A stretch of DNA of 64,000 nt, from positions 36,023-100,022 of the forward strand of contig DATJXB010000067.1 in assembly GCA_035500755.1 (NCBI GenBank). The letters run 5' to 3'. Both the position numbers and the translations under genes were made by a program. Shown here in pieces: positions 1-40,312 of this stretch. The notes below the pieces were generated by a model. That model did no database searches and was not told the origin of the DNA. It saw only the letters and a list, made by a program, of their open reading frames with translations. Position 1 is the first letter of the stretch, and every line of letters begins with the position of its first letter. This DNA is from Thermoanaerobaculia bacterium (GTDB lineage: Bacteria > Acidobacteriota > Thermoanaerobaculia > UBA5066 > Gp7-AA6).

Positions 1-238
1 CGTCGGCGGAGGCGTGGCAGTTCGGGACCCGCACGATCACCGGCAGCGACGCTCCCTCGGCGCCGCGCACCATCCGCTCGACGGACTCCGGGTTGAAGTA
101 GCCGTGCTCGGTGTCGACGACCGAAAAGTCGAAACCGGCGAGGCCGAGCACCTCGAGCGATCCCTCGACGGGCCAGGTCAGGAAGGCGCCGAGGAGAGGC
201 GCGCCGGAGAGGACGCGGGAGCGGAAGGTGTCGGACAT
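1..238 (-). CDS. HpcH/HpaI-family aldolase (2-keto-3-deoxy-acid aldolase / citrate-lyase-beta-like); N-terminal part only, gene runs off the left edge of the window
   Basis: Reverse complement of 1-238 reads from ATG (cat at 236-238) as MSDTFRSRVLSGAPLLGAFLTWPVEGSLEVLGLAGFDFSVVDTEHGYFNPESVERMVRGAEGASLPVIVRVPN. The LGxFL...GFDFxxVDxEHG motif is typical of HpcH/HpaI aldolases. Absent from the ORF table because it is truncated. Confidence 0.55.
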   Translation of the reverse strand, partial: MSDTFRSRVLSGAPLLGAFLTWPVEGSLEVLGLAGFDFSVVDTEHGYFNPESVERMVRGAEGASLPVIVRVPNCHASAD

Positions 239-245
239 CGACTCG

Positions 246-287
246 CCCCCCTCACCCTTGCCCTCTCCCCCCAAGGGGAGGAGAGGG
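246..287. repeat. Copy 1 of a ~40-bp C/G-rich palindromic repeat family (CCCCTCACCC..CCCTCTCCC..GGGAGAGGG); intergenic, between the aldolase start and the ChlI-like gene stop
   Basis: cccccctcacccttgccctctccccccaaggggaggagaggg. Internal inverted repeat ccctctcc / ggagaggg. Near-identical copies at 48257-48300, 58979-59015 (opposite strand) and 63499-63535 (opposite orientation). Confidence 0.8.
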
Positions 288-318
288 AATCTGAGGGAAG
301 CCGGTGGTCGCAAGCATC

Positions 319-1872
319 TCAGTTGGCCCGGTTCTTGACCAGGTTGAACTTCAGCATCTCCGTGTAGGAGATCCGCGAGTCGAGGTCCTCGCGCGCGATC
401 TTCAGGTGCTGCGTCAGCCCCTCGAGGACGAGCTCCATGCCGATGGCGAGCTCCTCTTTCGACGCCGGAGAGAAGTGTTCCTCGACCGCTTTCTTCAGGC
501 CCGGCACGGATTCGAGCGCCTTCAGGTGCTCGGCGAAGGGCGTTTCGTCGGAGATCGTGACGCGGTTGTCGGCGGCGAACCAGGCGGCGATCGGCTCGTA
601 GAGCGGGTGAATTTTCTCGGGCGGGGGCGTCGCCTGCCGCGCGCGGCGGACGGGCCCGGCCGTCTCCTCGTCGTCGTCGAGCTCCGGGCGGCGCCGCTCG
701 GTCGGGCGCCCCGCGTCCGGCGCCGGGAACTTCGCGTCGAAGAGCTTCTTGACCGCCGCCCCAATGAGCTTCTTGGCGATCACCTCGGCGCCCTGCTGCT
801 CGCCCTCGTAGACCATCTCGACCTTGCCGGTGATGGCCGGGAGCGTCGCCGGCAGGTCGCAGAGGCGCGGCGCCACGCGCGCCTCGCCGTGGACGAGCCC
901 GCGCCGCTCGAGGTTCGAGACGAGGATCTCGAGCGCCGAGATCGGCATGCGCGCGGACACGCCCGAGGACTGGTCGACGAACTCGGAGCCGCGCGCCGCG
1001 AACGCGATCTCCTCGACGAGCTCGCGGAAGAGCTCCGGGATCTCGATCGAGGGGCCGCCGGCGCGGTCGACCCACGCCTCCTGGGCCGTGATCTTCGCGG
1101 CCGTCTTCACGTCGTCCGGGTAGTGCGTGAAGATCTGCGACGAGATCCGGTCCTTCAGCGGCGTGATGATGTTGCCGCGGTTCGTGTAGTCCTCGGGGTT
1201 GGCCGAGAAGACGAGCAGGATGTCGAGCGGGATCCGCACCGGGAAGCCGCGGATCTGGAGGTCGCGCTCCTCGAGGATGTTCAGCAGGCCGACCTGGATG
1301 CGGGGCTGGAGGTCGGGCAGCTCGTTGATGGCGAAGATGCCGCGGTTGGTCCGCGGCACGATGCCGAAGTGGATGACTTCCTCGTCGGCGTAGGAGCGGC
1401 GCTCGGTGGCGGCCTTGATCGGGTCGATGTCGCCGATCAGGTCGGCGATCGAGACGTCCGGGGTCGCGAGCTTCTCGCGGTATCGGTCGGACCGCGGGAT
1501 CCACGCAATCGGGGCCGCATCGCCCTTTTCGGCGAGGATGCGCTGCCCGTACTTGGTGATCGGCAGGAGCGGGTCCTCGTTGAGTTCGCTGCCGGCGATC
1601 GCCGGGATCTCGGGATCGAGCAGGTTGACGAGCAGGCGCAGCAGCCGCGTCTTGGCCTGGCCGCGCAGGCCGAGGAGCAGGAAGTCGTGCCGCGACAGGA
1701 CGGCGTTCGAAAGCGCCGGCAGGACCGTCCGCTCGTAGCCGTGGATTCCGGGGAACGGTTTCTCGCCGCGGGAGAGCGCGCGCTTCAGGTTGTCGCGCAA
1801 CTCGTCCTTGACGCTGCGGGATCGGTATCCGGTCGCCTTGAGTTCGCCGAGGGTCTGGGGTTTCTTGGTCAC
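319..1872 (-). CDS. ChlI/BchI-like AAA+ ATPase (Mg-chelatase-related family) with a degenerate Walker A
   Basis: 517-aa ORF. Contains the ...FAINELPDLQPRIQVGLLNILEERDLQIRGFPVRIPLDILLVFSANPEDYTNRGNIITPLKDRI... block typical of ChlI/MoxR-type ATPases (sensor/arginine-finger region). Walker A is GLRGQAKT, not canonical GxxGxGKT. Confidence 0.7.
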   Translation of the reverse strand: MTKKPQTLGELKATGYRSRSVKDELRDNLKRALSRGEKPFPGIHGYERTVLPALSNAVLSRHDFLLLGLRGQAKTRLLRLLVNLLDPEIPAIAGSELNEDPLLPITKYGQRILAEKGDAAPIAWIPRSDRYREKLATPDVSIADLIGDIDPIKAATERRSYADEEVIHFGIVPRTNRGIFAINELPDLQPRIQVGLLNILEERDLQIRGFPVRIPLDILLVFSANPEDYTNRGNIITPLKDRISSQIFTHYPDDVKTAAKITAQEAWVDRAGGPSIEIPELFRELVEEIAFAARGSEFVDQSSGVSARMPISALEILVSNLERRGLVHGEARVAPRLCDLPATLPAITGKVEMVYEGEQQGAEVIAKKLIGAAVKKLFDAKFPAPDAGRPTERRRPELDDDEETAGPVRRARQATPPPEKIHPLYEPIAAWFAADNRVTISDETPFAEHLKALESVPGLKKAVEEHFSPASKEELAIGMELVLEGLTQHLKIAREDLDSRISYTEMLKFNLVKNRAN

Positions 1873-24903: not shown

Positions 24904-25848
24904 CTACTTCTGGTAGGCCATCGCGTTGAGCAGCGCGATGCGCCGGGCGACCGGCGGGTGGGTCGACCACAGCCCGGTGAAGAACCCCTGCCGGTCCGCC
25001 TCGGTGCCGCCGCGCGGGTCTTCGATGCAGAGGTGCGCCACGCCCTGTTTGATCGACGGCGTCGGCGCCACGGCCGCCGAGATCTTCCGCAGCGCCGAGG
25101 CGAGCGCGAGCGGGTTGCGCGTCAGCTCGGCGCCGGAAGCGTCGGCGAGGTACTCGCGCTGGCGGGAGACGGCGAGCGAGACCACCTGCGCGATGATCGG
25201 GGCGAGCAGGACCGCGACGACCCAGAGCGCGACGAAGAGAATGCCCAGCCCGCCGCCCTTGCCGTCGTCGCTCCGGCGCCGCCCGCCCCACCCGAGGCCG
25301 CGGCGGCTCCAGTCCGAGAGCAGCAGCACGGCCCCGGCGAGCGCGGCGACGACCGTCATGAGGCGCACGTCGTAGTTGCGGACGTGCGACAGCTCGTGGC
25401 CGACGACGCCCTGGAGCTCGTCGCGGTCGAGCGTGTCGAGCAAGCCCCGCGTCACGGCGATCGACGCGCGCTCCGGGCCCACGCCGGTGGCAAACGCGTT
25501 GGGGTCCGAGTCCGGGACGACGTAGACCGCCGGTTTCGGGATCCCGCCGGCGATCGCGATCTCCTCGACGACGTTGTCGAGGACGCGCTGCTTCGGGTCG
25601 TTGCGGTCGAGCGGGATCGCGCCCGTCGACTGGAGCACGGCCTTGTCGCCTTCGCGGAGAGACCACCACGCCGACATCCCCCCGAAGGCGATCGCGCCGA
25701 GCGTGGCGAAGGGGATTCCGGGAGAAAATCCGCCCGCGTAGAGCAGCCCGTCGGCGCCGAGCCCCATCAGGGCGAGCAGCACCACGAAGAACGCGATGAA
25801 GAGCCGGGTGTTGCCGAGGTTCTTCTTCTGCTGGTCGTAAAGGTTCAT
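24904..25848 (-). CDS. M48-family zinc metalloprotease (HtpX-like)
   Basis: Internal Met (MNLYDQQKKNLGNTRLFIAFFVVLL...). HEXXH in GHELSHVRNYD with TM helices either side. The first 202 codons of the table ORF are artefact. Confidence 0.85.
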   Translation of the reverse strand: MNLYDQQKKNLGNTRLFIAFFVVLLALMGLGADGLLYAGGFSPGIPFATLGAIAFGGMSAWWSLREGDKAVLQSTGAIPLDRNDPKQRVLDNVVEEIAIAGGIPKPAVYVVPDSDPNAFATGVGPERASIAVTRGLLDTLDRDELQGVVGHELSHVRNYDVRLMTVVAALAGAVLLLSDWSRRGLGWGGRRRSDDGKGGGLGILFVALWVVAVLLAPIIAQVVSLAVSRQREYLADASGAELTRNPLALASALRKISAAVAPTPSIKQGVAHLCIEDPRGGTEADRQGFFTGLWSTHPPVARRIALLNAMAYQK

Positions 25849-25877: not shown

Positions 25878-26471
25878 TCAGGACTTCGTGCGATCGGCCC
25901 GGATGTTCAGGTCGACCCGCGGCACCGCTCGCTGCGTCTCGTCCTTGAGCTCGAAGAGCTCGACCGGCTGGAACTTGAACGTCTGCGCGATCAGATTGTC
26001 GGGGAACATCTGCTGCGCCGTGTTGAAGCGTGTCGCGATGTCGTTGTAGAACTGGCGCGCGAAGCCGATGCGGTTCTCCGTCGAGGAGAGCTCCTCCATC
26101 AGCGCCTTGACCTGCTCGTTCGACTTCAGCGTCGGGTAGTTTTCCGCCAGGGCGAAGAGGCGCGAGAGCGTGGCGGTCAGGGCGTTCTCCTTGTCCGCCG
26201 CCTCGGCCACGCCGTGCGCGGCGACCGCGGAGTTGCGCGCCTGGATCACCTTCTCGAGCGTGTCCTGCTCGAACTGCATCTCGCCCTTCACCGCGGAAAC
26301 CAGGTTCGGGATGAGGTCGTGCCGGCGTTTCAACTGGACGTCGATCTGCTTCCAGCCGTTGGAGACCTGGTTCCGGAGGGAGATGAGGTTGTTGTAGCGC
26401 CAGATGGCCCAGATCGCGCCGACGACGGCGAGAACGACGAGCAGCGTCAGGCAACCTCCGATGGCGGCCAT
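25878..26471 (-). CDS. LemA-family protein
   Basis: 197 aa: N-terminal TM, then ...WRYNNLISLRNQVSNGWKQIDVQLKRRHDLIPNLV...ENYPTLKSNEQ..., the conserved LemA core. Confidence 0.85.
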   Translation of the reverse strand: MAAIGGCLTLLVVLAVVGAIWAIWRYNNLISLRNQVSNGWKQIDVQLKRRHDLIPNLVSAVKGEMQFEQDTLEKVIQARNSAVAAHGVAEAADKENALTATLSRLFALAENYPTLKSNEQVKALMEELSSTENRIGFARQFYNDIATRFNTAQQMFPDNLIAQTFKFQPVELFELKDETQRAVPRVDLNIRADRTKS

Positions 26472-26529: not shown

Positions 26530-27657
26530 TCACGAGTTCAACCCCTGGCGCAGCTCCCGGGCGAGGATTTCGACCCCCGACCGGGTTCCGCCCGTGAGCT
26601 TTTCCTTCCAGATGGTCTCGGTCTCGAACCGGCGGTCGCCGATCGACTCCGCCCACGGGCGCAGGGCGGCGTCGAGCTCGCCCGCCGACCAGACGTCCCC
26701 GCCGCGCTTGCGGACCATCGCGATCACGTAGGGCACGATCCGGATGAAGGCCCGCAGCGAGGTCGAGCTCTTGATCGAGTACTTGCGGCCGGCGAAGGCG
26801 GCGGGGAAGGCGCGGGCCGCCGCCTTGAAGTAGTTCAGGAAGAAGCGCCGTGAGTTCTCGCGGAACTCCCGGGCGATCCGGCCTCCGGCGGTGTCGATCG
26901 CCGCGAACACGTCGCGCAGCTCGTCGGCCAGCGAGGCCTGGGTCACCGAGCCCTTGCCGATCCCCAGCACCTTGATCGAGCCCTTCAGGGGCGAGCCCTC
27001 GTCCTCGTTCAGGGTCCGGATGACGTCGTGGGCGGCGGCCAGGTTGTCGTCGCGATAGAGCCGGCGGCCCGCCAGCGAGATCAGGTGCGACGGGTTCAGT
27101 TTCGTGTGCTTGCTGTTGATCGTCACGAAGAGCTCGACGACCTGGTCGGCCGTCAGGCTGTCGAAGACGACGGCGGGGACCTGGAAGTCCTTCAGGCTGT
27201 GCTTCTCCGCGAGCTGGTGCAGCGCGAGAAGCCGGTGCTGGCCGTCCAGGGCGCGGAGGATCCCGGACTCCTCGGGCAGCTTCAGCGACCCGGCGTCGGA
27301 CCGTCCGCTCGACGGGGAAAACTCCAGGCGCTTCTCCGACACGAGGAGAACGCTTCCCGGAATCGCGGGCAGCGTGCCGGAGTCGGCGCACTGCAGGTAA
27401 TAAGCGACGAGCTCGTCGATCTTCTTCTTGATGATGGGGCGCTGGAAGGCCTGCTCCGAGGCCGAGATCTTCCGTTCCAGGAACTCCCAGTTCACCCGTC
27501 CCGCCGCGACCTTCGCGTGGCCCCGCGTCGTCTGGCTGCCCGGCCCGAAGGAGAGGACCTCGAAACCCACCAGCGACTGGAGGTCCTCTCCCGACAGGAG
27601 AGCCTCGTAGAAGCGCACGCCGAACTGATTCAGGCGGAGCGAGGGAACCGAGATCAT
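26530..27657 (-). CDS. DGQHR-domain protein (DndB-like, ParB/Srx-fold)
   Basis: ATG with GGAGG RBS (MISVPSLRLNQFGVRFY...). Signature ...LRALDGQHRLLAL... plus ...FVTINSKHTKL... The upstream 172 codons of the table ORF are not coding. Confidence 0.75.
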   Translation of the reverse strand: MISVPSLRLNQFGVRFYEALLSGEDLQSLVGFEVLSFGPGSQTTRGHAKVAAGRVNWEFLERKISASEQAFQRPIIKKKIDELVAYYLQCADSGTLPAIPGSVLLVSEKRLEFSPSSGRSDAGSLKLPEESGILRALDGQHRLLALHQLAEKHSLKDFQVPAVVFDSLTADQVVELFVTINSKHTKLNPSHLISLAGRRLYRDDNLAAAHDVIRTLNEDEGSPLKGSIKVLGIGKGSVTQASLADELRDVFAAIDTAGGRIAREFRENSRRFFLNYFKAAARAFPAAFAGRKYSIKSSTSLRAFIRIVPYVIAMVRKRGGDVWSAGELDAALRPWAESIGDRRFETETIWKEKLTGGTRSGVEILARELRQGLNS

Positions 27658-28193: not shown

Positions 28194-28952
28194 GTGAAAA
28201 GCGCTGTTTTAGGGCTCCTGACGCTCGCCGGAGCAGCCGTGCTCGCCGCCTCGCCGGGCGACGAGCGGGTGTACGCCTCGCACCTGATGGTGGATCAGGA
28301 AGTCACGGTGGCGGCCCGCATCACGGGCATCATCGACACGATCCTCGTCGACCGCGGCAGCGCCGTGACGCAGGGCCAGGTGCTCGCGACGCTCGAGGCG
28401 AGCGAGTACGACGCGGCGATCCGGCAGGCCAGGGAAGACATGGACCTGAAGAAGATCGAGTACGAGCGGGCCGAATCGCTGGTCTCCTCGAGCGTCATGA
28501 GCGCCCAGGATCGCGACGAGAAGAAGGCCCAGTACCAGGTCGCCGTCGCGACGTGGGAGCGGGCCAAGGCGGTGCGCGACTACACCGTCATCCGGGCGCC
28601 CTTCGCGGGGATCGTCACGGAGAAGTACGCGCGCCTCGGCGAAAAGGTCATCGAGGACAAGAACGACCCGCTCTTCAAGATCACGGCGGTCGAGCCGCTG
28701 CTCGCCCGCGTGTACCTGCCGGAGGAGCAGCTCCTCCGGGTCAAGGTCGGGGACCGCGTCGAAGTGGTCGCGGATCGTTTCCCCGACGTGAAGACGAGCG
28801 GCGAGGTGCAGTTCGTCAGCCCGACCGTCGACGCCGCGAGCGGCACCTTCCAGGTGGTCGTGCGCGTCCGGAGGGACCCCGCCCGCACGGTGCTCCGGCC
28901 GGGCCTCGCCGTTCAGGTGCGATTCGCCCAGCCCGCGGCCGGGACGCGGTAA
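28194..28952 (+). CDS. HlyD-family / RND-type periplasmic adaptor (membrane-fusion-protein-like), short form with N-terminal signal anchor
   Basis: GTG start (VKSAVLGLLTLAGAAVLAAS...), then the biotin-lipoyl-like motif ...VAARITGIIDTILVDRGSAVTQGQVLATLE...IRAPFAGIVTEKYARLGE..., a short alpha-hairpin and a beta-barrel domain. No cognate pump gene adjacent. Confidence 0.7.
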   Translation: MKSAVLGLLTLAGAAVLAASPGDERVYASHLMVDQEVTVAARITGIIDTILVDRGSAVTQGQVLATLEASEYDAAIRQAREDMDLKKIEYERAESLVSSSVMSAQDRDEKKAQYQVAVATWERAKAVRDYTVIRAPFAGIVTEKYARLGEKVIEDKNDPLFKITAVEPLLARVYLPEEQLLRVKVGDRVEVVADRFPDVKTSGEVQFVSPTVDAASGTFQVVVRVRRDPARTVLRPGLAVQVRFAQPAAGTR

Positions 28953-28968: not shown

Positions 28969-29669
28969 ATGGCCGGAAAGCCGCGCTCCTCGGCCCGTCT
29001 GCGCACGACGCTCGACCGGGTCCTCGTTCACGACGTCAAGAACGTTTCCTTCCGCCTGCGGCTGCTGCTGTCCAATCTCGACGAGCACTGGGACGATCCC
29101 CAGTTCCGGGAGACCGTCAAGGAGCTGCTGGCTTCGACGGTCGAGCGCCTCGAGCAAGCCGTCGGGCGGCTCTCGACCGACGAGGACGCCGTCCTCATCA
29201 AGGTCTCGCTCGACGTCAACGGCCTGATCCACGAGGTCGTCGCCCGGCCGCCGCGGCGGCAGCGTCCCGGGGCCCGGGCGGCCCCGGCGCGCCTCGCCCT
29301 CGGACAGGTGCCCCGGATCTGGGGCGACCCGTTCTACCTAGGCGACGCCTTCGCGAGCCTGCTCGAGAACGCGGCCGAGGCCGCCGGTCCGGACGGCCGG
29401 GTGCTGGTGCGGACGTTCGCGACGGGCTCCGGCCGGCGCGCGCGCGTCGTGGTCGAGGTCATCGACAACGGATCCGGGATGACCCAGGAATTCCTGCGCG
29501 ACCGCCTCTTCCGGCCGTTCGAGACCACCAAGCCCGAGGGCGTCGGGCTCGGTCTGGCGACGGCCAGCCAGATCGTGCGCTTCCACCGCGGGACGATCCG
29601 GATCCTGTCGCAGCCGGGCGGCGGCACCCTCGTGCGCTGCGCGTTCCCGGCGGCCGCGGAGGCCTCGCC

Positions 29670-29673
<4 letters not shown>
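28969..29673 (+). CDS. Soluble sensor histidine kinase (HisKA + HATPase_c, essentially no sensor domain)
   Basis: 234 aa: H-box VLVHDVKNVSFRL; ATP-lid motifs ...ENAAEAAGPDGRVLVRT...VIDNGSGM...GVGLGLA. Confidence 0.8.
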
Positions 29674-31040
<1,367 letters not shown>

Positions 31041-31163: not shown

Positions 31164-31179
31164 TGGCCCCGGTCTTGCG
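31164..31179 (+). promoter_or_regulatory. Sigma-54 (-24/-12) promoter for the repeat-peptide gene
   Basis: TGGCCC-cggtc-TTGCG versus consensus TGGCAC-N5-TTGCA. GG and GC elements at correct spacing. About 11 nt from the implied TSS, about 30 nt upstream of RBS/ATG. Directly downstream of the sigma-54 activator gene. Confidence 0.65.
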
Positions 31180-31209: not shown

Positions 31210-31554
31210 ATGGCCAACGAAGTGAAAATCAGACTGACGGACGCCCAGAAGGCGAAGATCAAGGAAGCCACTGGGAAGGACCTTCCGGAGATTCACGTCG
31301 AGAGTTTCGGCTCCACGCCGGCGGTTTCGGCGCCCGCTCCGAGCGCTTCGCTCAAGTCGGCGAAGTCGATGCGCGCGGCGAAGTCGCTCCGCGCCGCCAA
31401 GTCGATGCGCGCGGCGAAGTCGCTCCGCGCGGCGAAGTCCATGCGGTCGGCCAAGTCGATGAAGGCGGCGAAGTCGATGCGCTCGGCCAAGTCCATGCGC
31501 TCCGCCAAGTCGATGCGCTCGGCCAAGTCGATGCGGTCGGCCAAGTCGCTCTAA
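31210..31554 (+). CDS. Small secreted-peptide-like protein: 48-aa N-terminal region followed by ~11 tandem basic hexapeptide repeats (AKSMRS/AKSLRA)
   Basis: ATG at 31210 with RBS AGGAGGGAAG 7 nt upstream: MANEVKIRLTDAQKAKIKEATGKDLPEIHVESFGSTPAVSAPAPSASLKS(AKSMRA)(AKSLRA)...(AKSL). Table ORF 31093-31554 is the same frame with a longer, RBS-less start. A rho-independent terminator follows. Confidence 0.7.
   Translation: MANEVKIRLTDAQKAKIKEATGKDLPEIHVESFGSTPAVSAPAPSASLKSAKSMRAAKSLRAAKSMRAAKSLRAAKSMRSAKSMKAAKSMRSAKSMRSAKSMRSAKSMRSAKSL
31351..31554 (+). repeat. Tandem 18-bp direct repeat (~11 units, consensus GCSAAGTCGATGCGCKCG), in-frame within the peptide gene
   Basis: Units begin at 31360, 31378, 31396, ... 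Each encodes A-K-S-[ML]-[RK]-[AS]. Not CRISPR: no unique spacers. Confidence 0.9.
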
Positions 31555-31573
31555 TCCCGGTCCGAAGCAGGAA

Positions 31574-31603
31574 CGCCCCGCTTCGGCGGGGCGTTTTTTT
31601 TTG
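31574..31603 (+). terminator. Rho-independent terminator after the repeat-peptide gene
   Basis: gccccgc-ttcg-gcggggc followed by a 9-T run. Confidence 0.75.
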
Positions 31604-31699: not shown

Positions 31700-33853
31700 C
31701 TACCACCAGATCACGGTCTGGAGCCAGTGGCGCAGGACGCGCCACGAGCGCGACAGAAACGAGCGCCGGCCGAGCGAGATCTTGGCGTGCCCGGTCATGC
31801 CGGGCAGATAAGCGCCATCGGGGTTGTCGAAGGCGACGACCGCCACGAAACGCTCCGGCAGGTCGCGCGCCCGGAGCGTCTGCGTCGTGCCGTCGGCGGT
31901 GTGGGGCAGCTCGTGCGCCGCCGCGCCGACCTGGACGATGCGTCCTTCGAGGATCCGCGCGGGTCTCGCCCTCAGCTGCATCGCCACCGGTGCCCCCGGG
32001 TGCAGGTAGGCGAGCAGGCGCTCGGAGACGGGAATCTCGGCCTTCAGTCGGTCGCACTCGCCGACGCGCGCGATGACGGCACCGGCGGGAACGAAGCGAT
32101 CCGCCAGGTCCTGGGTTCGGCGGGTGAGCAGGCGCCCGGCGATGGGGCTCTCGACCGAGAGGCGCCGCAGGCGATCCTCCTCGCGGGCGAGCGCCATCGC
32201 GGCGGCGACCTCGCGGTTCTCGGCGTGGAAGACACCCTGGGCGTCGGCGGCGTCGCGCTGCCGGCTCGTGCGCTTGCGCGAGGCGTCGCGGACGGCCGAG
32301 GCGCCGGCGAATCCGGACGCGACGTCGGGGCTGTCGAGGACCGCGACGACGTCGCCCATCTTCACGCGGTCGCCTTCGCGGAAGCGCACGGCGACGATCG
32401 TGCCGTCGTCGGGCGCCTGGATCGCCGCCTCGGTCCAGGGTTGCAGCTCCGCCTCCGTCTCCAGTCTCCACGGCGCCCAGGGCACGATCAGTGCCAGCAG
32501 GAGGACGGCCCCTCCGGCGACGAGAGCCGTCCGGGATCGACGGGACATGAGCAACTCCTTCTTGTCGAGGTAGAGGAGGCGGAGGCCCTGGAGGAACGCG
32601 CGGACGTCCTTCCGGAAGAGGCGCAGCAGCGTCAGGATCAGGAGAACGAGGGCGACGTGGGGGAAGTATTTCGCGTAGAAGTTGTAGAAGAGCTTCGCGA
32701 GGAACACCATGATGAAGACGGTGAACCCGAGGGCGAGCGGGGCGTAGACGAGGAAGATCCGGCGCTTGCGCCGCGACAGGACCGGCACCTCGACGTTCAG
32801 GCGCAGGACGTGGCGCTTGAGCAGCGCGCCCAGGTACTCGATCGAGTCCTCGCGCAGCTCCGGGATCTCGAGGACGCTGCACAGGGCGTGGTAGCCGTCG
32901 ACCTTGCGGAGCGGGTTGATGTTGAAGAAGAGCGTGGAGATGCCCGTGAAGAGCATCAGCTTGTACGCGAGCTCGTGAAGCAGCGTGTCGGGGTACGACG
33001 CCACCCAGGCCGCGACCGCGAAGCTGCAGATGATCGCCTCGATGTACATGCCGGCCAGCACGACCCACAGCCGGTGCCACTTGTTCTGGAAGAGCAGCGC
33101 GTCGGTCGTGTCGCAGTAGAACGCCGGCATGAAGTAGAGCAGCGCGACGCCGATGTCGTGGACGTCGCCGCCGTAGAACTTGCAGACGTAGCCGTGCGCC
33201 ATCTCGTGGATCAGGCCGATGCCGCAGAGGATGACGAAGAACTGGACCGCGTCCCAGAACGGTTTGCGGAGAAACGCGTAGAGCTCGAGTGTCTGCTCCC
33301 AGATCGGGCCGAAGTGCCGGACGATGACGCCGGTCATCAGCGCGATCATCACGAGCGACACGGCGACGGTGGCGGGGCGCCAGATCCAGCGGACGTACTT
33401 CTGGGTCCGGTTCATGAACTCGTTCGGGTCGAAGACGTGGAAGGGGATGAGGAAGATGTCGAACCCTTCCGCCTTCTGCTCCGCCGTCCGGCGACGCGCG
33501 TCCTTGATCCAGTTCAGCTGCTCGAGGTTGCGCTCGACGGAGGACTTCTCGAGCAGGTCCATGTTCCGGAGAGACTCTTCGTACTCCGGGACGAGCGAGG
33601 CCTCGATCGGCTCGGTGAAGCGGGCCTGGTACGCGTCGTGGATCTCGGACAGAGTCCGCGTTCCGTCGAAGAGCTTCATGAGGTCCCAGGTGGCCTCGTC
33701 GAAGCTGTAGTACTGGGTCCGGTCGGGATTCTTGACGACCCAGTTGACCTCGCCCATCTGAACGACGCGGCGAATGACGAGGTTGCTCTTCAACCGCGGC
33801 CGGCCGGTCGAGCCCTTCTTGAACGCGGCCAGGGGAGCCGCGCCCGACTCCAT
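31700..33853 (-). CDS. Three-part fusion: N-terminal PqqD-like RiPP-recognition-element (RRE) domain, site-2-protease (peptidase M50) polytopic metalloprotease, C-terminal HlyD-like periplasmic domain
   Basis: C-terminal 717 aa of table ORF 31700-35161 (MESGAAP... start; MGEVNWVV at 33757 is the alternative). N-terminus ...YYSFDEATWDLMKLFDGTRTLSEIHDAYQARF...VPEYEESLRNMDLL fits the PqqD pattern (LNETGAxIWxLxDGxRTVxEI...). HEXXH (LIHEMAHGYV) inside a TM helix plus NINPLRKVDGYH (NxxPxxxxDG), the S2P signatures. C-terminal ...GTIVAVRFREGDRVKMGDVVAVLD...SPIAGRL... is HlyD/biotin-lipoyl-like. The upstream part of the table ORF overlaps the GAF gene out of frame. Confidence 0.75.
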   Translation of the reverse strand: MESGAAPLAAFKKGSTGRPRLKSNLVIRRVVQMGEVNWVVKNPDRTQYYSFDEATWDLMKLFDGTRTLSEIHDAYQARFTEPIEASLVPEYEESLRNMDLLEKSSVERNLEQLNWIKDARRRTAEQKAEGFDIFLIPFHVFDPNEFMNRTQKYVRWIWRPATVAVSLVMIALMTGVIVRHFGPIWEQTLELYAFLRKPFWDAVQFFVILCGIGLIHEMAHGYVCKFYGGDVHDIGVALLYFMPAFYCDTTDALLFQNKWHRLWVVLAGMYIEAIICSFAVAAWVASYPDTLLHELAYKLMLFTGISTLFFNINPLRKVDGYHALCSVLEIPELREDSIEYLGALLKRHVLRLNVEVPVLSRRKRRIFLVYAPLALGFTVFIMVFLAKLFYNFYAKYFPHVALVLLILTLLRLFRKDVRAFLQGLRLLYLDKKELLMSRRSRTALVAGGAVLLLALIVPWAPWRLETEAELQPWTEAAIQAPDDGTIVAVRFREGDRVKMGDVVAVLDSPDVASGFAGASAVRDASRKRTSRQRDAADAQGVFHAENREVAAAMALAREEDRLRRLSVESPIAGRLLTRRTQDLADRFVPAGAVIARVGECDRLKAEIPVSERLLAYLHPGAPVAMQLRARPARILEGRIVQVGAAAHELPHTADGTTQTLRARDLPERFVAVVAFDNPDGAYLPGMTGHAKISLGRRSFLSRSWRVLRHWLQTVIWW

Positions 33854-33894: not shown

Positions 33895-36357
33895 TCACGG
33901 CAGCAGCGGCCAGAGCTTGAGCCAGAAGTAGCGCACGGGCTTGCGGAAGAGGGCGTAGCCGAGCGGTCGGGTCGCCGCCGCGACCTTTCCCGTGCCGAGC
34001 ATCCCGGGCTTCATCGCTTCGTCCGGGTTGTCGACGCGGGCCTCCGCGATGACGAAGCTCTCCTCGCCTTCCTGGCGGAGCTCCGCGCCGACGCGCTCGA
34101 CCCGGCCGCGGAACACGCGTGTCGGGTAAGGATTCATTTTCAGCGCGACCGGCTGACCCGCCTTGACCAGCGCGGCCTCGGCTTCGGGGACGGCGACTTC
34201 GGCGGTGACGCTGCCCAGATCGGCGACGATCGCGAGCTCCGCGCCGCGGGCGAGCGCCTGTCCGACGCGCTGCTCGACGTGCGGCGTGATCAGGACGCCG
34301 GCCGCCGGAGCGCGCAGAAGGGTCTTGGCGAGCTGCTCCTCGGCGAGCGCCCGCCGGGCCTTCTGCTCCTCGCACCGCGCGCGGGCCTCGAACATCGCCG
34401 CGGCGTCGCCCTCCTGGGTGTGCTGCGCGACGTCGCTCTCGGCGATCGCGAGGGCCGCCGAGGCCTCGGCCAGCGCGGCCCGGTAGGACTCGTCCTTCAG
34501 CGTCGCGACGACGTCGCCGGCGGCGACGCGGTCGCCCTCGCGGTGGAGGACCTCTTTGACGACGCCCTCGACGGCGGCCGTGATGGCGGCCCGGCGCGCC
34601 GGGAGCACGCGGACCGGCCCCTCCACGCGAATCTTCCACGGCACCGCGACAAGGGCGACCAGCACGATCCCCGCGCCGATCAGCCACGCCTGCCGCCGAC
34701 GGATCGGGATGTCGAGAAGCTTCCGGCGCTTCTCGAGCAGGGGGGCCAGGAACCCGGCGAGCGGGACCTGCTGATAGAGCTGGGCGTTGCGGACGGCGAC
34801 GGTGGCCTGGTTGACGAGGATCGCGAGCAGGTCGCGGTTCCCTTCGTCGAAGGCGAGGGGCTCGGCGCTCTCGAAGCCGAGCGCGCCGAGTTTTCCCTCC
34901 TCGTCCTTGAGGAGGACGCCGAAGAACGACTTGAGGCCCGTCTCGGCGAAGATTGCCCGGAACTTCTCGACCGTCTCCGGCCGCTCGGCCGTGATCTCGC
35001 CGTCCTCGGTCTGGGTGACGGCGACGTCGGTGCCGGAGAGGAAGACCCAGTTGAGCAGATCGTCCAGGCGCCGGACGTTCGGGTCCTTGCGGTCGATCTC
35101 CTTGGCCCCCGAGACGGCGCCGAGGCGGAACCGCCCCTTCTCGAAAATGCCGATGGCGCACCGGTCGTACGGGATCAGCGCGGACGTGGCGTTGACGACC
35201 GTGGCCATGACCTTGTCGAGGTCGAGGGTCGCCGTGATCTCGCGGCTGACGGCGAGCAGGGCGTCGAGCTCTTCGACCTTCTTCTCGGCCTCGTGCTGCC
35301 GCGCGGTGCGGAGCGCGCGCACCGCCTGGCGCGACAGGTCGGCGAGGAGCTCCTCGTCTTCCGCCGAGAACTCGGGGTGGCGGCCGCGCTTGTTGACGAG
35401 GACGAGCGCGCCCACGGGGATCTCGTCCTCCACGAGCGCGATGCCGAGCACCGAGCGCGCGAGGTAGCCGTCGTTCTCCGTGGCGACGGGATCACCTTCG
35501 GGGATCCGGTTGCGCCGCAGCGGCGCCTGGTCGGCCAGGAGGTCGCCGACGACCGGGCTCCCGACGGCCTCGGGCGCGTTCTCGACGTCGTAGTTCTCGT
35601 TGAGAGCGGTCGCGGCGAGCGTCACGTCCTCGCCGTCGAGCCGCCAGAGGGACGCGACCTCGGCGGTCAGGAAGTCGGCCGCTTTGCGCACGATGAGGTC
35701 CGAGAGCTCTTGCTCGTCGATGGTCGACCCGAACGCCTTCGAGAGGTCGTAAAGATTCGTCAGGCGCTCGATGGCGTGGAGCATGCCGACGGTCTTGCGC
35801 TCGGAGCGCAGGGCCCGGCCGAGGGCCGGCGCCGCCTGCTCGAGAAAGCGCTCGAGCCGCGCGAGCGCCTCGTCGGCGTCGGGCATCTCGGTGAAAAAGA
35901 GCGCCAGGAGTCCGACGACGAGGTTCTCGGCTTCGAGCGGCACCGCGAGGCACGCGCGGAAGCCGGGCGGCAGGCCGCGGACGAACGGGTCGCCGTCCGT
36001 GAGCTCCGCACCCGTCAGCACGATCGGCTGCCGGTCGCGGACGAGGTCGTGGACGAAACCGGTCTCTCGAGGCGCCGAACGCCTCAGGAATTTGTCGACG
36101 CCCTCGCCGGAGGCGCCGATGCAGAGAAAGAGCGGGTTGACGGTGTCGGGCGCCCAGAGCAGCGTCGCGTCGGCGCCGGCCATGACCGTGCTCCACCGGG
36201 CCGCCCAGCCGGAAGTCTGGGACAGGTTCTCGCAGAGGGCCAGCTCGGCGAGCGCCGTGACCTCCGCCTCCGCCGCCGAGGTGTCGGCCTCCTCGGCCGC
36301 GTCGCCGTCCTCCCCGTCGACCGGTTCGTCCTCCGGATCCTCGGGTTCGTCCGCCAA
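33895..36357 (-). CDS. Acidic N-terminal tail + three GAF domains + TM + C-terminal HlyD-like periplasmic domain
   Basis: 820 aa: MADEPEDPEDEPVDGEDGDAAEEADTSAAEAE (acidic), three GAF-like blocks (ends ...VGLLALFF, ...VGALVLVNKRG, ...LGALGFESAEP), a TM helix (WLIGAGIVLVALVAVPW) and an HlyD-like domain (...AAITAAVEGVVKEVLHREGDRVAAGDVVATL...LRAPAAGVL...). Confidence 0.8.
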   Translation of the reverse strand: MADEPEDPEDEPVDGEDGDAAEEADTSAAEAEVTALAELALCENLSQTSGWAARWSTVMAGADATLLWAPDTVNPLFLCIGASGEGVDKFLRRSAPRETGFVHDLVRDRQPIVLTGAELTDGDPFVRGLPPGFRACLAVPLEAENLVVGLLALFFTEMPDADEALARLERFLEQAAPALGRALRSERKTVGMLHAIERLTNLYDLSKAFGSTIDEQELSDLIVRKAADFLTAEVASLWRLDGEDVTLAATALNENYDVENAPEAVGSPVVGDLLADQAPLRRNRIPEGDPVATENDGYLARSVLGIALVEDEIPVGALVLVNKRGRHPEFSAEDEELLADLSRQAVRALRTARQHEAEKKVEELDALLAVSREITATLDLDKVMATVVNATSALIPYDRCAIGIFEKGRFRLGAVSGAKEIDRKDPNVRRLDDLLNWVFLSGTDVAVTQTEDGEITAERPETVEKFRAIFAETGLKSFFGVLLKDEEGKLGALGFESAEPLAFDEGNRDLLAILVNQATVAVRNAQLYQQVPLAGFLAPLLEKRRKLLDIPIRRRQAWLIGAGIVLVALVAVPWKIRVEGPVRVLPARRAAITAAVEGVVKEVLHREGDRVAAGDVVATLKDESYRAALAEASAALAIAESDVAQHTQEGDAAAMFEARARCEEQKARRALAEEQLAKTLLRAPAAGVLITPHVEQRVGQALARGAELAIVADLGSVTAEVAVPEAEAALVKAGQPVALKMNPYPTRVFRGRVERVGAELRQEGEESFVIAEARVDNPDEAMKPGMLGTGKVAAATRPLGYALFRKPVRYFWLKLWPLLP

Positions 36358-36397
36358 CTTGTCCTCGCCGAGCGTGGGCCGTGCCCGGTCGGCCGGC

Positions 36398-36733
36398 CTA
36401 GAAGCTGGAGACTGCCGCCTCGAGATCCTCGTGGATCTCGAAGACGGAGTCGAGCTTGGTCATCTGGAGGAGCTTGCGGACCTGCTGGCCGGCGTGGAGG
36501 AGCTTGGCCTGACCGCCCTCCTTCTGGGCGAGCGTGAGCGCCCGCACGAGCGCGCCGAGGCCGGAGCTGTCGAGGAAGCCGACCGCCTTCAAGTCGACGA
36601 GCAGGTTGGTCTTGCCCTCTTCGAGCAGACGCGTGACCGTCTTCTTGAACGTCGTCTCGGGCTCGCCGATGACGAGGTCTCCAACCACCGTCAGAATCGT
36701 GACGTCGCCGTCTTCGCTTGTCGTCAGGTCCAT
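36398..36733 (-). CDS. STAS-domain protein (anti-sigma-factor antagonist, SpoIIAA-like), first gene of the GAF-HlyD / M50-HlyD operon
   Basis: 111 aa from internal Met of table ORF 36398-38395: MDLTTSEDGDVTILTVVGDLVIGEPETTFKKTVTRLLEEGKTNLLVDLKAVGFLDSSGLGALV... Conserved DSSGLG phosphorylatable-serine region. Confidence 0.8.
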   Translation of the reverse strand: MDLTTSEDGDVTILTVVGDLVIGEPETTFKKTVTRLLEEGKTNLLVDLKAVGFLDSSGLGALVRALTLAQKEGGQAKLLHAGQQVRKLLQMTKLDSVFEIHEDLEAAVSSF

Positions 36734-37825: not shown

Positions 37826-38087
37826 CCCTCGCCCGGGGGCGGCATCGAATCTCCGGCGGGATGAGATCCGGGACGTCCGGTTTCTCGTATTCGTGTCTGG
37901 AGGTCCTCGAAGGCCGCATGAATCTTGACGTCGCGGCGGGGAGGCGGAGGTAAGATTCGGCGCCAATGGCGCTCCCCGCGGGAGGAGCGCGAGGCAAACC
38001 GGTCGATCGCAGGCGTAGCTCGGCACGGCCATGTCGGCTGGACCGAATTCGATGACGCCCCGTCGGGGCAAGAAAAGGAGACTGGGG

Positions 38088-38495
38088 ATGAAGAAGGGTG
38101 ACCTGACGACGAAGGCGATCGGGTTGGCGATCGCCGGCGTGCTCGCGGGCTCGGGCCTGGCGAGCGCGATTCCTGCCAAGAACGCGAGCGCGAAGACGAC
38201 CGCCGGCGACGAGAAGGCCAAGGACACGAAGGCCGCGTCGGACAAGCACGTCTGCAAGGGCCAGAACTCCTGCAAGGGCAAGGGCGGCTGCAAGAGCGGC
38301 GACGCCGGCTGCGCGGGCAAGAATTCCTGCAAGGGCAAGGGTGGCTGCGCCTCGGCCGACATGAAGCACTCCTGCAAGGGCATGAACTCCTGCAAGGGTC
38401 ACGGCGGCTGCAAGACGGGCGACGGCGGCTGCGCGGGCAAGAACTCCTGCAAGGGCAAGGGCGGCTGCGCGGTCCCGGTCAAGAAGGCGGCGTAA
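38088..38495 (+). CDS. Bufferin-like RiPP precursor (BUF_6/12Cys type): Sec signal peptide + 12-Cys core of four CKGxNSCKGKGGC-type repeats
   Basis: ATG at 38088 with RBS AAAAGGAG: MKKGDLTTKAIGLAIAGVLAGSGLASAIPAKNASA... then ...HVCKGQNSCKGKGGCKSGDAGCAGKNSCKGKGGCASADMKHSCKGMNSCKGHGGCKTGDGGCAGKNSCKGKGGCAVPVKKAA. Lower GC than flanks. Immediately upstream of the MNIO + DUF2063 genes. Confidence 0.75.
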   Translation: MKKGDLTTKAIGLAIAGVLAGSGLASAIPAKNASAKTTAGDEKAKDTKAASDKHVCKGQNSCKGKGGCKSGDAGCAGKNSCKGKGGCASADMKHSCKGMNSCKGHGGCKTGDGGCAGKNSCKGKGGCAVPVKKAA

Positions 38496-38505
38496 GTCGG
38501 ATCCG

Positions 38506-38535
38506 TTCTGCCCGGGGGTCCTCGCGGCCCCCGGG
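38506..38535 (+). terminator. Hairpin / candidate partial terminator (attenuator) between precursor and MNIO genes
   Basis: cccggggg-tcctcgcg-gcccccggg (perfect 8-bp stem) followed by a T-rich tract catttctcttt, in the 60-nt precursor-MNIO gap. Confidence 0.4.
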
Positions 38536-38555
38536 CATTTCTCTTTGACGACTCC

Positions 38556-39449
38556 ATGACCCCGAACGCTGCCTCCCGCGTCCCCGCCGTCCGGAACCGC
38601 TGGGGCTTCGAAGACCTCGGCATCGGCGTGGGCCTCCGGACCATTCACTATCCGCACATCCTCGAGAACCGGCCCGACGTGGACTTCTTCGAGATCCTCT
38701 CGGAGAACTACATGGACACGGGCGGCCGCCCTCTCTGGGTGCTCGACCAGGTCGCGGAGCGCTACCCGATCGTGATGCACGGCGTCTCGATGAACATCGG
38801 CAGCGCCGATCCGCTCGACCGCGAGCACCTGGCGAAGTTGAAAGCCCTCGCCGGGCGCACCAGGGCGCGCTGGGTGTCGGACCATCTCTGCTGGACCGGC
38901 GTCGCCGGCCGCAACACGCACGACCTCCTGCCGATGCCGCTGACCGAAGAGGCGCTCGCGCATGTGGCCGCGCGGGTCCGCCAGGTCTCGGAGATTCTCG
39001 AGCGCCCGCTGATGCTCGAGAACGCTTCGACCTACGCCGAGTTCGCGGCCTCCTCCATGCCCGAGTGGGAGTTCTTCGGTCGCCTGATGGAGGCGGCCGA
39101 CTGCGGCATGCTCCTCGACGTCAACAACGTCTACGTCAGCTCCTTCAACCACGGCTTCGACCCCGAGCGGTACGTGGACGCGATCGACCCGGCGCGCGTG
39201 ACGCAGTACCACCTCGCCGGGCACACCAACAAGGGCACGCACATCATCGACACGCACAACGACCACGTGATCGACCGCGTCTGGGAGCTCTACGCGCGGT
39301 CCTCGGCGAGGACGGGCAACGTCTCGACGCTCCTCGAGTGGGATGCCGACATCCCGGCCTTCGACGTCGTCCACGCCGAGGCCCTGAAGGCCCGCGCGCA
39401 CCGGCGCGCGGAGAAGAGGGACAAGAAGGTTGCCGCCGCCGCCTCTTGA
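38556..39449 (+). CDS. MNIO enzyme (DUF692, multinuclear non-heme iron oxidative enzyme; MbnB/BufB family)
   Basis: 297 aa: ...LGIGVGLRTIHYPHILENRPDVDFFEILSENYMDTGGRPL...YPIVMHGVSMNIGSADPLD...WVSDHLCWTG...LENASTY... match DUF692 blocks. Confidence 0.85.
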   Translation: MTPNAASRVPAVRNRWGFEDLGIGVGLRTIHYPHILENRPDVDFFEILSENYMDTGGRPLWVLDQVAERYPIVMHGVSMNIGSADPLDREHLAKLKALAGRTRARWVSDHLCWTGVAGRNTHDLLPMPLTEEALAHVAARVRQVSEILERPLMLENASTYAEFAASSMPEWEFFGRLMEAADCGMLLDVNNVYVSSFNHGFDPERYVDAIDPARVTQYHLAGHTNKGTHIIDTHNDHVIDRVWELYARSSARTGNVSTLLEWDADIPAFDVVHAEALKARAHRRAEKRDKKVAAAAS

Positions 39450-40278
39450 TCTCGGCCTGCCGCACTTGCAGCGGTGGATGCAGGCGGTGATCGAGCAGCC
39501 GGGCACCGTCGACGACGCGGTCGTCTCGCCCGCGGCGCGCCGCGAGCTCGACCCCGTCCGGATCGGCCGCGTGGTTCTCCCGTCGAAGACGCTCACGTCG
39601 GTCGAGCGCGTCGGCGTGTACCAGGGCATGTATCTCCTCCGGATGATCGAAGCGCTCGAGGGCGACTATCCGGCCGTCGCGCACTTCCTCGGCGACGAGG
39701 AGTTCGCCGACCTCGTGACCCGCTACGTCGCGGCGCACCCGTCGACGAGCTACACGTTCAACCGCCTCGGAAAGCGATTCCCCGAGTTCATCCAGGAAGC
39801 GCGCGGCGTCCGGAAGAAGGGCTTCGTCGCCGATCTCGCGCGCCTGGAGCTTTCCGTGACGGAGGTCTTCGACGCGCCCGAGTCGCCGGCGTGGCCGGAC
39901 GACGCGGTGGCCCGCCTCCCGAAGGAGGCCTGGGCGTCGGCCGTGCTCAAGCCGATCGCCGCGTTCCGGCTCGGGAGCTACGCCCATCCCGTCAACGCCT
40001 ACCTGCAGTCGGTCAAGGAGGAGAACCACGACCATCCGGGCGTGGGCCGCCAGGCGACCCGCGTCGTCGTGTGGCGCAAACGCTACGAAGTGTGGCGCCT
40101 CGAGCTCTCGAAGCCGGCCTTCGATTTTCTCGCCTCGCTCGCCAAGGGGCGTCCGTTCGGCAAGGCCGTCGTCGCCGCCGCCCGCGGCCTGCAGGGGAAC
40201 CCCGGCGAGCAGCTCTTCCGCTGGCTGCGCGACTGGGTCGCCGAGGGGATGTTCGAAGGCGTCCAGACGGCGGGCTGA
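39430..40278 (+). CDS. DUF2063-family protein (MNIO partner, BufC/MbnC-like)
   Basis: 282 aa, 20-nt overlap with the MNIO gene (translational coupling). N-terminal ...LPHLQRWMQAVIEQPG... conserved start of DUF2063. Confidence 0.8.
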   Translation: MPPPPLDLGLPHLQRWMQAVIEQPGTVDDAVVSPAARRELDPVRIGRVVLPSKTLTSVERVGVYQGMYLLRMIEALEGDYPAVAHFLGDEEFADLVTRYVAAHPSTSYTFNRLGKRFPEFIQEARGVRKKGFVADLARLELSVTEVFDAPESPAWPDDAVARLPKEAWASAVLKPIAAFRLGSYAHPVNAYLQSVKEENHDHPGVGRQATRVVVWRKRYEVWRLELSKPAFDFLASLAKGRPFGKAVVAAARGLQGNPGEQLFRWLRDWVAEGMFEGVQTAG

Positions 40279-40312
40279 GCCCAAGCGCGCGATCACGATA
40301 GGCTCTGCCGCG

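Follow-up and report, generated by a model that had tools for sequence, protein, structure and literature searches.

The window analysed here is a 64,000-nucleotide stretch of contig DATJXB010000067.1, from a Thermoanaerobaculia bacterium, and has the composition of a high-GC member of the Acidobacteriota (GC content ~70%). Within it, one unbroken open reading frame (ORF) encodes a membrane protein made of three parts: a RiPP (a peptide made by ribosomes and then post-translationally modified) recognition element (RRE), a site-2 protease (S2P) of family M50, and a periplasmic adaptor of the HlyD, or membrane fusion protein (MFP), kind. We refer to this as the fusion protein. Coordinates of the gene, the parts of its product, and neighbouring features are in Table 1. 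The three-part architecture had been proposed in an earlier note, and all strings quoted there occur in the translation: YYSFDEATWDLMKLFDGTRTLSEIHDAYQARF, HEMAHG (residues 216-221), and NINPLRKVDGYH (311-322). The ORF is real, rather than a product of chance, because homologues are numerous and mostly of full coverage. Public data hold one identical protein and 492 homologues; the majority are ~731 amino acids long, with 100% query coverage. Their named sources are metagenome-assembled genomes of Thermoanaerobaculia/Acidobacteriota.

Each of the three domains could be identified. At the N-terminus, the Pfam PqqD model matches residues 38-82 with 22.9 bits (E 1e-4), just under the cut-off of 23.4, and only 6 of 40 diverse relatives are matched at E<=0.01. 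A profile of residues 15-135, built from 40 family members, was compared with PDB sequences. The top matches are PqqD (5sxy, E 8e-4), TbiB1 (2e-3), a lasso-peptide RRE, and a further PqqD (3g2b, 3.5e-3). The AlphaFold2 (AF2) model of the same residues (pLDDT 80) has the beta-beta-beta-alpha-alpha-alpha topology of an RRE, with a three-stranded sheet and then three helices, and resembles solved RRE structures. The PqqD/RRE-like N-terminus of the earlier note is therefore borne out, with Pfam PqqD itself being borderline. At the C-terminus, HlyD_D23 (residues 476-686) and HlyD_3 (567-658) each score above cut-off, and the NCBIfam RND_mfp subfamily model scores 75.3 bits, under its cut-off of 94.9. 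The best Foldseek matches in the PDB for the C-terminal 260 amino acids are MacA, MexA, AcrA, and ZneB (E ~1e-14). This is the HlyD/biotin-lipoyl-like adaptor that had been expected.

The central region is an S2P, as the earlier note also held. Pfam Peptidase_M50 (PF02163) matches residues 205-310 with 28.2 bits, above the 27.2 cut-off, and matches 38 of the 40 diverse relatives. Note that a single-sequence phmmer search of PDB sequences with the M50 region found no match; a family profile was required. The profile of the M50 core aligns with SpoIVFB (8vjl, E 2.5e-4) over both catalytic motifs, so that NINPLRKVDG of the fusion protein lines up with NLLPIWPLDG of SpoIVFB. It also aligns with MjS2P. 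In site-2 proteases, the aspartate of the NxxPxxxxDG motif is the third zinc ligand. Residues H216, E217, H220, P314, D319, and G320 are invariant in the 40 relatives, which share 23-45% identity. Furthermore, both motifs are kept in 98 of the 101 full-length (>=640 amino acids) proteins among the best 150 cluster representatives. Such conservation of the zinc ligands, and of NxxPxxxxDG, indicates that the predicted zinc site is under selection for catalysis.

Hydropathy and a full-length AF2 model (pLDDT 76.7) place seven transmembrane (TM) helices between the RRE and the adaptor. The HEMAH motif (216-220) sits in TM2 (hydrophobic segment ~199-226, AF2 helix 199-226). The NxxPxxxxDG motif sits in TM4, at the kink between AF2 helices 291-311 and 318-328. 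Hence, both motifs are within predicted TM helices, a point on which the protease assignment had been considered open to refutation. Both lie toward the cytoplasmic side of the membrane, and a beta-hairpin (234-247) follows TM2, as in other S2Ps. The lysine- and arginine-rich loops 329-360 and 414-437 mark the cytoplasmic face. With these loops inside and an odd number of TM helices, the RRE is predicted to be cytoplasmic and the adaptor periplasmic.

Convergent to the fusion protein gene is a small gene that encodes a basic, repetitive peptide, the putative substrate. The peptide ends ...AKSL; no Sec signal and no family match were found. In Thermoanaerobaculia-type relatives the first ~40 residues are nearly constant and the tail is swapped. 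The tails include (KAQKAM)n, (KSPSL)n, 20-mers, (SGKGL)n, (KSPAKLAG)n, and (SAKNIAGRA)n. The gene found at this position in 34 Terriglobales-type loci encodes a different conserved leader, M-x-IQKKSLI-x5-KKAIIAT, with tails such as (LAKGT)13, (GGKNL)8, (AGR)12, (ATKNL)14, (PAVAR)n, (KPGAF)n, (AKV)n, and (FAKAPT)n. A hidden Markov model (HMM) of the Thermoanaerobaculia leader finds no Terriglobales leaders, and the reverse search gave the same result; hence, we treat these as two leader families, not one. The gene keeps its position in relatives of 30-83% identity. In 37 loci, tandem DNA repeats whose period is divisible by 3 occur immediately downstream of the protease gene. It is the hallmark of processed ribosomal peptides that a hypervariable core follows a conserved leader. 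The adjacent repeat peptide, to which the earlier note had looked for a target of processing, has precisely this form.

The repeat peptides of relatives matched no curated family and have no Sec signal. Weak matches to L23, Hc2, the MxKDx pentapeptide, and LpxD were dismissed as compositional. Searching a set of 5.8 billion proteins with the leader recovered only 12 sequences. Many database copies of the repeat peptide end after 50-80 amino acids, on contigs of <1.5 kb. This suggests that coding tandem repeats routinely break short-read assemblies, and that the family is under-represented in gene catalogues. Repeat peptides were not found in planctomycete loci. In 11 loci, a conserved protein of ~120-130 amino acids, with the core YANFCRVTGSPEELIIDFGLNPQP...VNFYTAKRLLAALQMSVQRHE..FGVLETD, stands in place of the repeat peptide. 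In the Planctomycetota (L055, L059, L065, L067, L068, L071, L077, and L079; L numbers are our handles for loci of relatives) its gene is 150-350 nucleotides downstream of the protease-adaptor gene, on the same strand.

The repeats themselves raise the question of what the protease would cut. One explanation is that the RRE grips the leader while the protease cuts the repeats serially. The precursor would then be a multi-core one, yielding many peptides of 3-20 amino acids with a signal or nutrient-like role, rather than one long polycation. Each repeat does offer an identical potential cleavage site, the units (3, 5, 6, 10-12, or ~20 amino acids) carry one or two lysine or arginine residues each, and locus L085 encodes a single 29-residue non-repeat peptide, in two identical gene copies. 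However, units as short as AGR or AKV are unlikely signals, and no receptor is evident. The units are also wholly different between close relatives, whereas the machinery is constant, which better fits a bulk physicochemical role. We regard serial cutting as quite unlikely.

The small gene is probably induced by a sigma54-type promoter. Taken alone, the -24/-12 element TGGCCCCGGTCTTGC has one mismatch, and chance would be expected to produce such a match somewhere in the window. However, the element is kept upstream of the homologous gene in seven of eight related loci, despite diverged flanks. Near-canonical TGGCA(C/T)-N5-(T/C/G)TGC sites are present at -60 to -75 of the Terriglobales and L085 peptides. 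No sigma70-like site was found upstream of the window peptide gene. Because the element is conserved, and the immediate neighbour is a sigma54 activator, predicted sigma54-dependent induction of the peptide gene is well supported.

We turn now to the surrounding genes. The minus strand carries, in order, the STAS, GAF-adaptor, and fusion protein genes; the plus-strand genes converge on the last of these. The GAF-adaptor stop codon is 41 nucleotides before the ATG of the fusion protein gene, and the minus-strand genes form one operon. The same arrangement recurs at protease identities of 72%, 54%, and 53%. Almost every Acidobacteriota locus has the GAF-adaptor gene directly upstream of the protease gene, as do L048 and L049. 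A STAS gene adjoins the module in most loci and a sigma54 response regulator has the equivalent position in ~45. In Terriglobales and related lineages (~27-33% protease identity), a small adaptor gene lies between the GAF-adaptor and protease genes; these loci still have the convergent gap and then the sigma54 regulator. Overall, the STAS, GAF-adaptor, protease-adaptor, convergent small, and sigma54 regulator genes remain syntenic from 83% down to ~27% protease identity. Two further observations concern the STAS gene. It is preceded by a divergent alpha/beta-hydrolase gene (window 36357-36398; L001 6029-7063). In addition, no anti-sigma kinase or phosphatase for the STAS protein was found within 10 kb, and this protein is the only partner-switching component seen.

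Table 1. Features of the fusion protein locus. Nucleotide positions are those of the window; residues (aa) are those of the fusion protein.
Feature	Position	Strand	Details
Third, small HlyD-type adaptor	~28194..28952	+	N-terminal hydrophobic anchor or signal; start 28194 (GTG) or 28239
Small soluble histidine kinase	28969..29673	+	H-box + HATPase_c; overlaps regulator start
Sigma54-dependent response regulator	29670..31040	+	REC, AAA+ Sigma54_activat, HTH_8; directly upstream of peptide gene
Sigma54-type -24/-12 promoter element	31164..31178	+	TGGCCCCGGTCTTGC; 32 nt upstream of peptide ATG
Putative substrate peptide	31210..31554	+	114 aa; convergent to protease gene; leader MANEVKIRLTDAQKAKIKEATGKDLPEIHVESFGSTPAVS, then ~11 basic hexapeptides (SAKSMR/AAKSLR)
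Intrinsic terminator	31573..31603	+	hairpin + T-run, between convergent peptide and protease genes
RRE-S2P(M50)-MFP fusion protein	31700..33853	-	717 aa, unbroken ORF
RRE of fusion protein	aa ~20-100		
TM1-TM7 of fusion protein	aa ~158-456		HEMAH 216-220, NINPLRKVDG 311-320
Periplasmic adaptor of fusion protein	aa 460-698		lipoyl/barrel-sandwich, short alpha-hairpin 509-563 (AF2), beta-barrel
C-terminal amphipathic helix of fusion protein	aa 699-716		
GAF-adaptor	33895..36357	-	820 aa; cytoplasmic GAF domains (GAF-GAF), one TM helix, periplasmic HlyD-type adaptor
STAS-domain protein	36398..36733	-	111 aa; anti-sigma-antagonist type; first gene of minus-strand operon
Cys-rich small protein	38031-38495	+	CKG(K/Q)xxCKG repeats
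MNIO enzyme	38556-39449	+	MbnB_TglH_ChrH
HvfC_N/DUF2063 partner	~39496-40296	+	

No gene for an ATP-binding cassette (ABC), resistance-nodulation-division (RND), or major facilitator superfamily (MFS) transporter is conserved in the module. Of 86 loci, only 5 have an ABC ATPase gene within 7 kb, and it is never adjacent or in the operon. This bears on whether the fusion protein is simply an ordinary efflux adaptor for an unlinked pump of the ABC, RND, or MFS type, with M50 and RRE regions that serve for anchoring or are vestigial, and with no dedicated peptide substrate. The NCBI annotation does say periplasmic adaptor subunit, the adaptor is the best-scoring of the three parts, pump and TolC genes are often unlinked, and some relatives (L085) have RND and ABC genes a few kb away. 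Set against this are the catalytic motifs, with the invariance described above, and the module itself, which conserves leader-bearing neighbour genes but no pump gene. We consider an ordinary efflux role very unlikely.

Loci from other phyla provide further clues. The motif [LIVMF]ExR[IVLM][AT]P occurs in 15 ORFs of the fetched loci, compared with ~4 expected from shuffled sequences. One, a 32-residue ORF in L029, was discounted. The other 14 adjoin the protease gene (nine loci), and their motif comes after a lysine-rich stretch, near where the product probably starts. L075 encodes three small peptides in tandem (...EELEQRIAPD...), and small motif-bearing peptides are encoded in L046, L060, and L076, those of L076 being rich in glycine and cysteine. 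The motif ORF of L048 has 141 residues and overlaps the end of the protease gene. At the other extreme, L027, L030, L049, and L086 have motif ORFs of 1119-1234 residues, starting with, for example, MAEMKGMKKDQKKKIGKLKAKKLEERVAPA, and these have no hydrophobic or Sec signal. The LE(E/D)RIAP motif of these neighbour genes, or [LV]E(E/D)R[IV]AP in a looser form, resembles the daptide leader motif ELExMEAP. In the repeat peptide of L006, FKVEALEGRESP is at the place equivalent to the leader motif.

Genes for TolC-like outer membrane efflux proteins (OEPs) are directly beside the protease homologue in seven loci from five lineages (L027, L030, L048, L049, L066, L073, and L078). For instance, the L049 operon encodes cargo, GAF-adaptor, protease-adaptor, small adaptor, and an OEP (TolC family, E 5e-51). 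Outer membrane factor, adaptors, protease-adaptor, and leader-bearing cargo are combined in four loci. Two other observations were made among these relatives. The Planctomycetaceae precursors of L076 (3-509 and 901-1203, plus strand) have a KLEERIAP leader and cores rich in glycine, cysteine, and tyrosine (e.g. NKGGIANGGNRYCYGGGGYAGYVWCCNNGGHCRLH), and look like candidate disulfide-rich secreted peptides. Separately, an N-terminal 'LE.LE.R.LLA' motif occurs in large proteins near the module in L055 (10585-14757, minus strand) and L073 (768-2234, minus strand). Such a motif is typical of giant secreted proteins of Planctomycetota and Verrucomicrobiota, and might be related to the LE(E/D)RIAP leaders.

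Together, these observations lead us to a reading that we hold to be probable, if only modestly so. The fusion protein would be the inner-membrane core of a module for leader-peptide-dependent processing and envelope-spanning export. In outline, the histidine kinase and sigma54 response regulator would turn on the convergent small gene, via its sigma54 promoter, with the GAF and STAS proteins probably adding input. The product would be a cytoplasmic pre-peptide, with a conserved leader of ~40 amino acids and a highly basic, fast-evolving, tandem-repeat tail. We infer that the cytoplasmic RRE docks this leader. The S2P domain, whose zinc site lies in the half of the membrane facing the cytoplasm, would then remove the leader, probably near the conserved G-x-x-P-A-V-S boundary. 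The fused adaptor, GAF-adaptor, and small adaptor may assemble a hetero-oligomeric, MexA/MacA-like sleeve that leads to a TolC-type outer-membrane channel, which would be encoded elsewhere in the genome. Through this sleeve, the mature polycationic peptide would leave the cell. The earlier note, too, had the polypeptide bind a leader, cleave within the membrane, and contact a periplasmic channel partner. Such a function gains support because the neighbour peptide is conserved in position, and because TolC-like genes are adjacent in seven loci.

Several points weigh against processing and export of this kind. Neither an ATPase nor any other recognised energy-coupling transporter is encoded in the conserved module. 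TolC-like genes were found neither in the 64-kb window nor in the Acidobacteriota loci. A clean LE(E/D)RIAP motif is missing from the window leader, and the Terriglobales leader has an unrelated sequence. That the genes converge shows that they are linked, and does not tell which component acts on which. Outward transport of a polycation opposes the membrane potential. Finally, site-2 proteases normally cut membrane-embedded helices, and the repeat peptides are hydrophilic.

A rival reading is that the fusion protein instead serves regulated intramembrane proteolysis. The protease-adaptor would be an envelope or ligand sensor, comparable to RseP, or to SpoIVFB with SpoIVFA, that controls a STAS/kinase/sigma54 pathway. 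The basic repeat protein would be a cytoplasmic output, such as a histone-H1-like nucleoid or polyanion binder, and not a substrate. GAF, STAS, histidine kinase, and sigma54 regulator genes do surround the module, which encodes no energy source for export. Moreover, the positive-inside rule favours cytoplasmic polycations, and the composition of the repeat proteins is like that of the H1-like Hc2 (E 7e-7 for Pfam HC2 and 4e-4 for NCBIfam histone_lik_HC2, with each score under its cut-off). Conversely, an RRE binds peptide leaders in every characterised case, and the closest family to the fusion protein is a leader peptidase. Conservation of the N-terminus, with all else hypervariable, marks a processed precursor rather than a DNA-binding protein. 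Signalling also leaves unexplained the leader-bearing small peptides, the giant Sec-less proteins, and the TolC genes beside relatives. On these grounds, we think a sensory role improbable.

If processing and export are correct, the route over the diderm envelope would be leader-dependent, free of ABC transporters, and made of known parts (RRE, site-2 protease, HlyD adaptor, and TolC), which poses the question of what powers transport. A wider generalisation can be offered only tentatively. Together with its one or two paralogous adaptors and a TolC-like channel, the RRE-S2P-adaptor might represent an unrecognised class of diderm secretion system in which an intramembrane zinc protease replaces the ABC transporter. 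The protease would recognise a leader via the RRE, remove it, and feed cargo into the adaptor/TolC conduit. Cargo would range from sigma54-induced polycationic repeat peptides to Sec-less LE(E/D)RIAP proteins of >1100 amino acids, and the Acidobacteriota repeat peptides would in that case constitute a new family of secreted polycations of ribosomal origin. If the export reading holds, thousands of 'efflux adaptor subunit' genes, in Acidobacteriota, Planctomycetota, Verrucomicrobiota, Oligoflexia, Chlamydiota, and others, would gain a function. Abundant, hard-to-study soil bacteria would gain a new sigma54-controlled family of ribosomal peptides, composed of a leader and fast-evolving basic repeats, whose products could be antimicrobials, matrix cross-linkers, or surface modifiers.

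Comparison with known systems helps to place the module. The NCBIfam model NF041824, for the daptide intramembrane metalloprotease, matches residues 35-407 of the fusion protein (E 3.6e-52) with 177.8 bits, below the 300-bit cut-off. Daptide MpaP is an RRE-dependent intramembrane leader peptidase with the RRE N-terminal to the site-2 protease (Ren et al., bioRxiv 10.1101/2023.03.08.531785). The two proteins share this domain order, homology over residues 35-407, and adjacent small precursor genes (putative for the fusion protein), and LE(E/D)RIAP in precursors of fusion protein relatives is akin to daptide ELExMEAP. In contrast to MpaP, the fusion protein has three extra TM helices and a 260-residue periplasmic adaptor. 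Its neighbourhood has no genes for MpaB (DUF-RRE), MpaC (dehydrogenase), MpaD, MpaM, an aminotransferase, or a methyltransferase, and the window peptide is not Thr-terminated. The host is a diderm member of the Acidobacteriota, rather than one of the Actinomycetota or Bacillota, and the putative substrate is a basic tandem-repeat peptide.

The resemblance to MpaP also raises the prospect that the peptide is modified before its leader is removed, either in daptide fashion or by a nearby MNIO enzyme (oxidative, and dependent on multinuclear non-heme iron). The best NCBIfam match is indeed a daptide protease, and an MNIO/DUF2063 pair is 4-6 kb away. However, the NF041824 score is well short of its cut-off and the module has none of the daptide tailoring enzymes. 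The MNIO cluster encodes a Cys-rich precursor of its own, and no such cluster adjoins the module in L003, L004, or the Terriglobales loci. We judge modification of the peptide to be extremely unlikely, and rejected the MNIO/DUF2063 cluster as acting on it.

Other M50 proteases provide further parallels. NCBIfam NF058609 (YydH/LiaK) matches residues 213-335 of the fusion protein (E 2.6e-11), and YydH, EpeP, and LiaK are likewise intramembrane M50 proteases dedicated to a ribosomal peptide. EpeP is thought both to cleave and to export its peptide (PMC10885120). In contrast to the fusion protein, EpeP has no RRE or adaptor, acts on a substrate epimerised by a radical-SAM enzyme, and belongs to a monoderm. 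With RseP, SpoIVFB, and MjS2P, the fusion protein shares the catalytic core and motifs, an extracytoplasmic accessory domain, and partner proteins. It differs in lacking PDZ and CBS domains, in place of which it has a cytoplasmic RRE and periplasmic adaptor, and in having no nearby gene for an anti-sigma or pro-sigma substrate.

Type I secretion and peptidase-containing ABC transporters (PCATs) offer a likeness of another sort. There, recognition and removal of an N-terminal leader take place at the inner membrane and fall to a protease that is physically tied to the exporter, as we infer for the module. HlyD-family adaptors, a TolC-like channel (in seven related loci), and cargo from small peptides to giant proteins are also held in common. 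The module differs by having no ABC transporter or C39 peptidase; a zinc S2P is fused to the adaptor instead. It also has two or three different adaptor paralogues, one with cytoplasmic GAF domains. We rate the system as a combination of known kinds, namely RiPP leader peptidase and type-I-like secretion.

The earlier note considered the combination of domains to be uncharacterised. This stands in part. A literature search for the M50, HlyD, and PqqD/RRE architecture found no paper on an RRE-S2P-adaptor triple fusion; two seeming mentions of M50 in adaptor reviews turned out to be a DOI string and a residue number. Conversely, the RRE-S2P pair is already known, being of the daptide leader peptidase MpaP type. 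As far as we found, the adaptor fusion, the multi-adaptor module with no ABC transporter, and the sigma54-driven basic repeat peptides are undescribed. PADLOC matched none of the module proteins; hence, the module is not a catalogued defence system.

The triple fusion is common, not rare, and hidden under uninformative database names. Homologues are labelled "HlyD family efflux transporter periplasmic adaptor subunit" or, in KEGG, "putative peptide zinc metalloprotease protein". With residues 1-450 as the query, 9612 clusters at 50% identity were found (1304 with E<=1e-30), the best being mostly 685-720 amino acids long. In a scan of one genome per GTDB species, at least 599 confirmed loci encode relatives of the fusion protein. 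Among the matches listed, those over residues ~19-716 come from Acidobacteriota (including the isolate Granulicella sp. S190), Planctomycetota, Verrucomicrobiota, Oligoflexia, and Chlamydiales. Further lineages with such matches are Zixibacteria, Gemmatimonadota, Binatia, Limnocylindrales, Alteromonadaceae, and Kuenenia.

Other genes in the window deserve brief mention. The MNIO gene noted above is part of a bufferin/HvfA-like cluster (38031-40296, plus strand), and a DoxX gene is ~3 kb beyond. The cluster adjoins the module in L002 too. It is taken to be independent of the protease module, since it is not adjacent in L003 and L004. On the other side, a DndB-domain protein (PF14072) is encoded at 26530-27657 (minus strand), with no other dnd genes in view. 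It is followed by a LemA and peptidase M48 gene pair (25878-26471 and 24904-25848, both minus strand).

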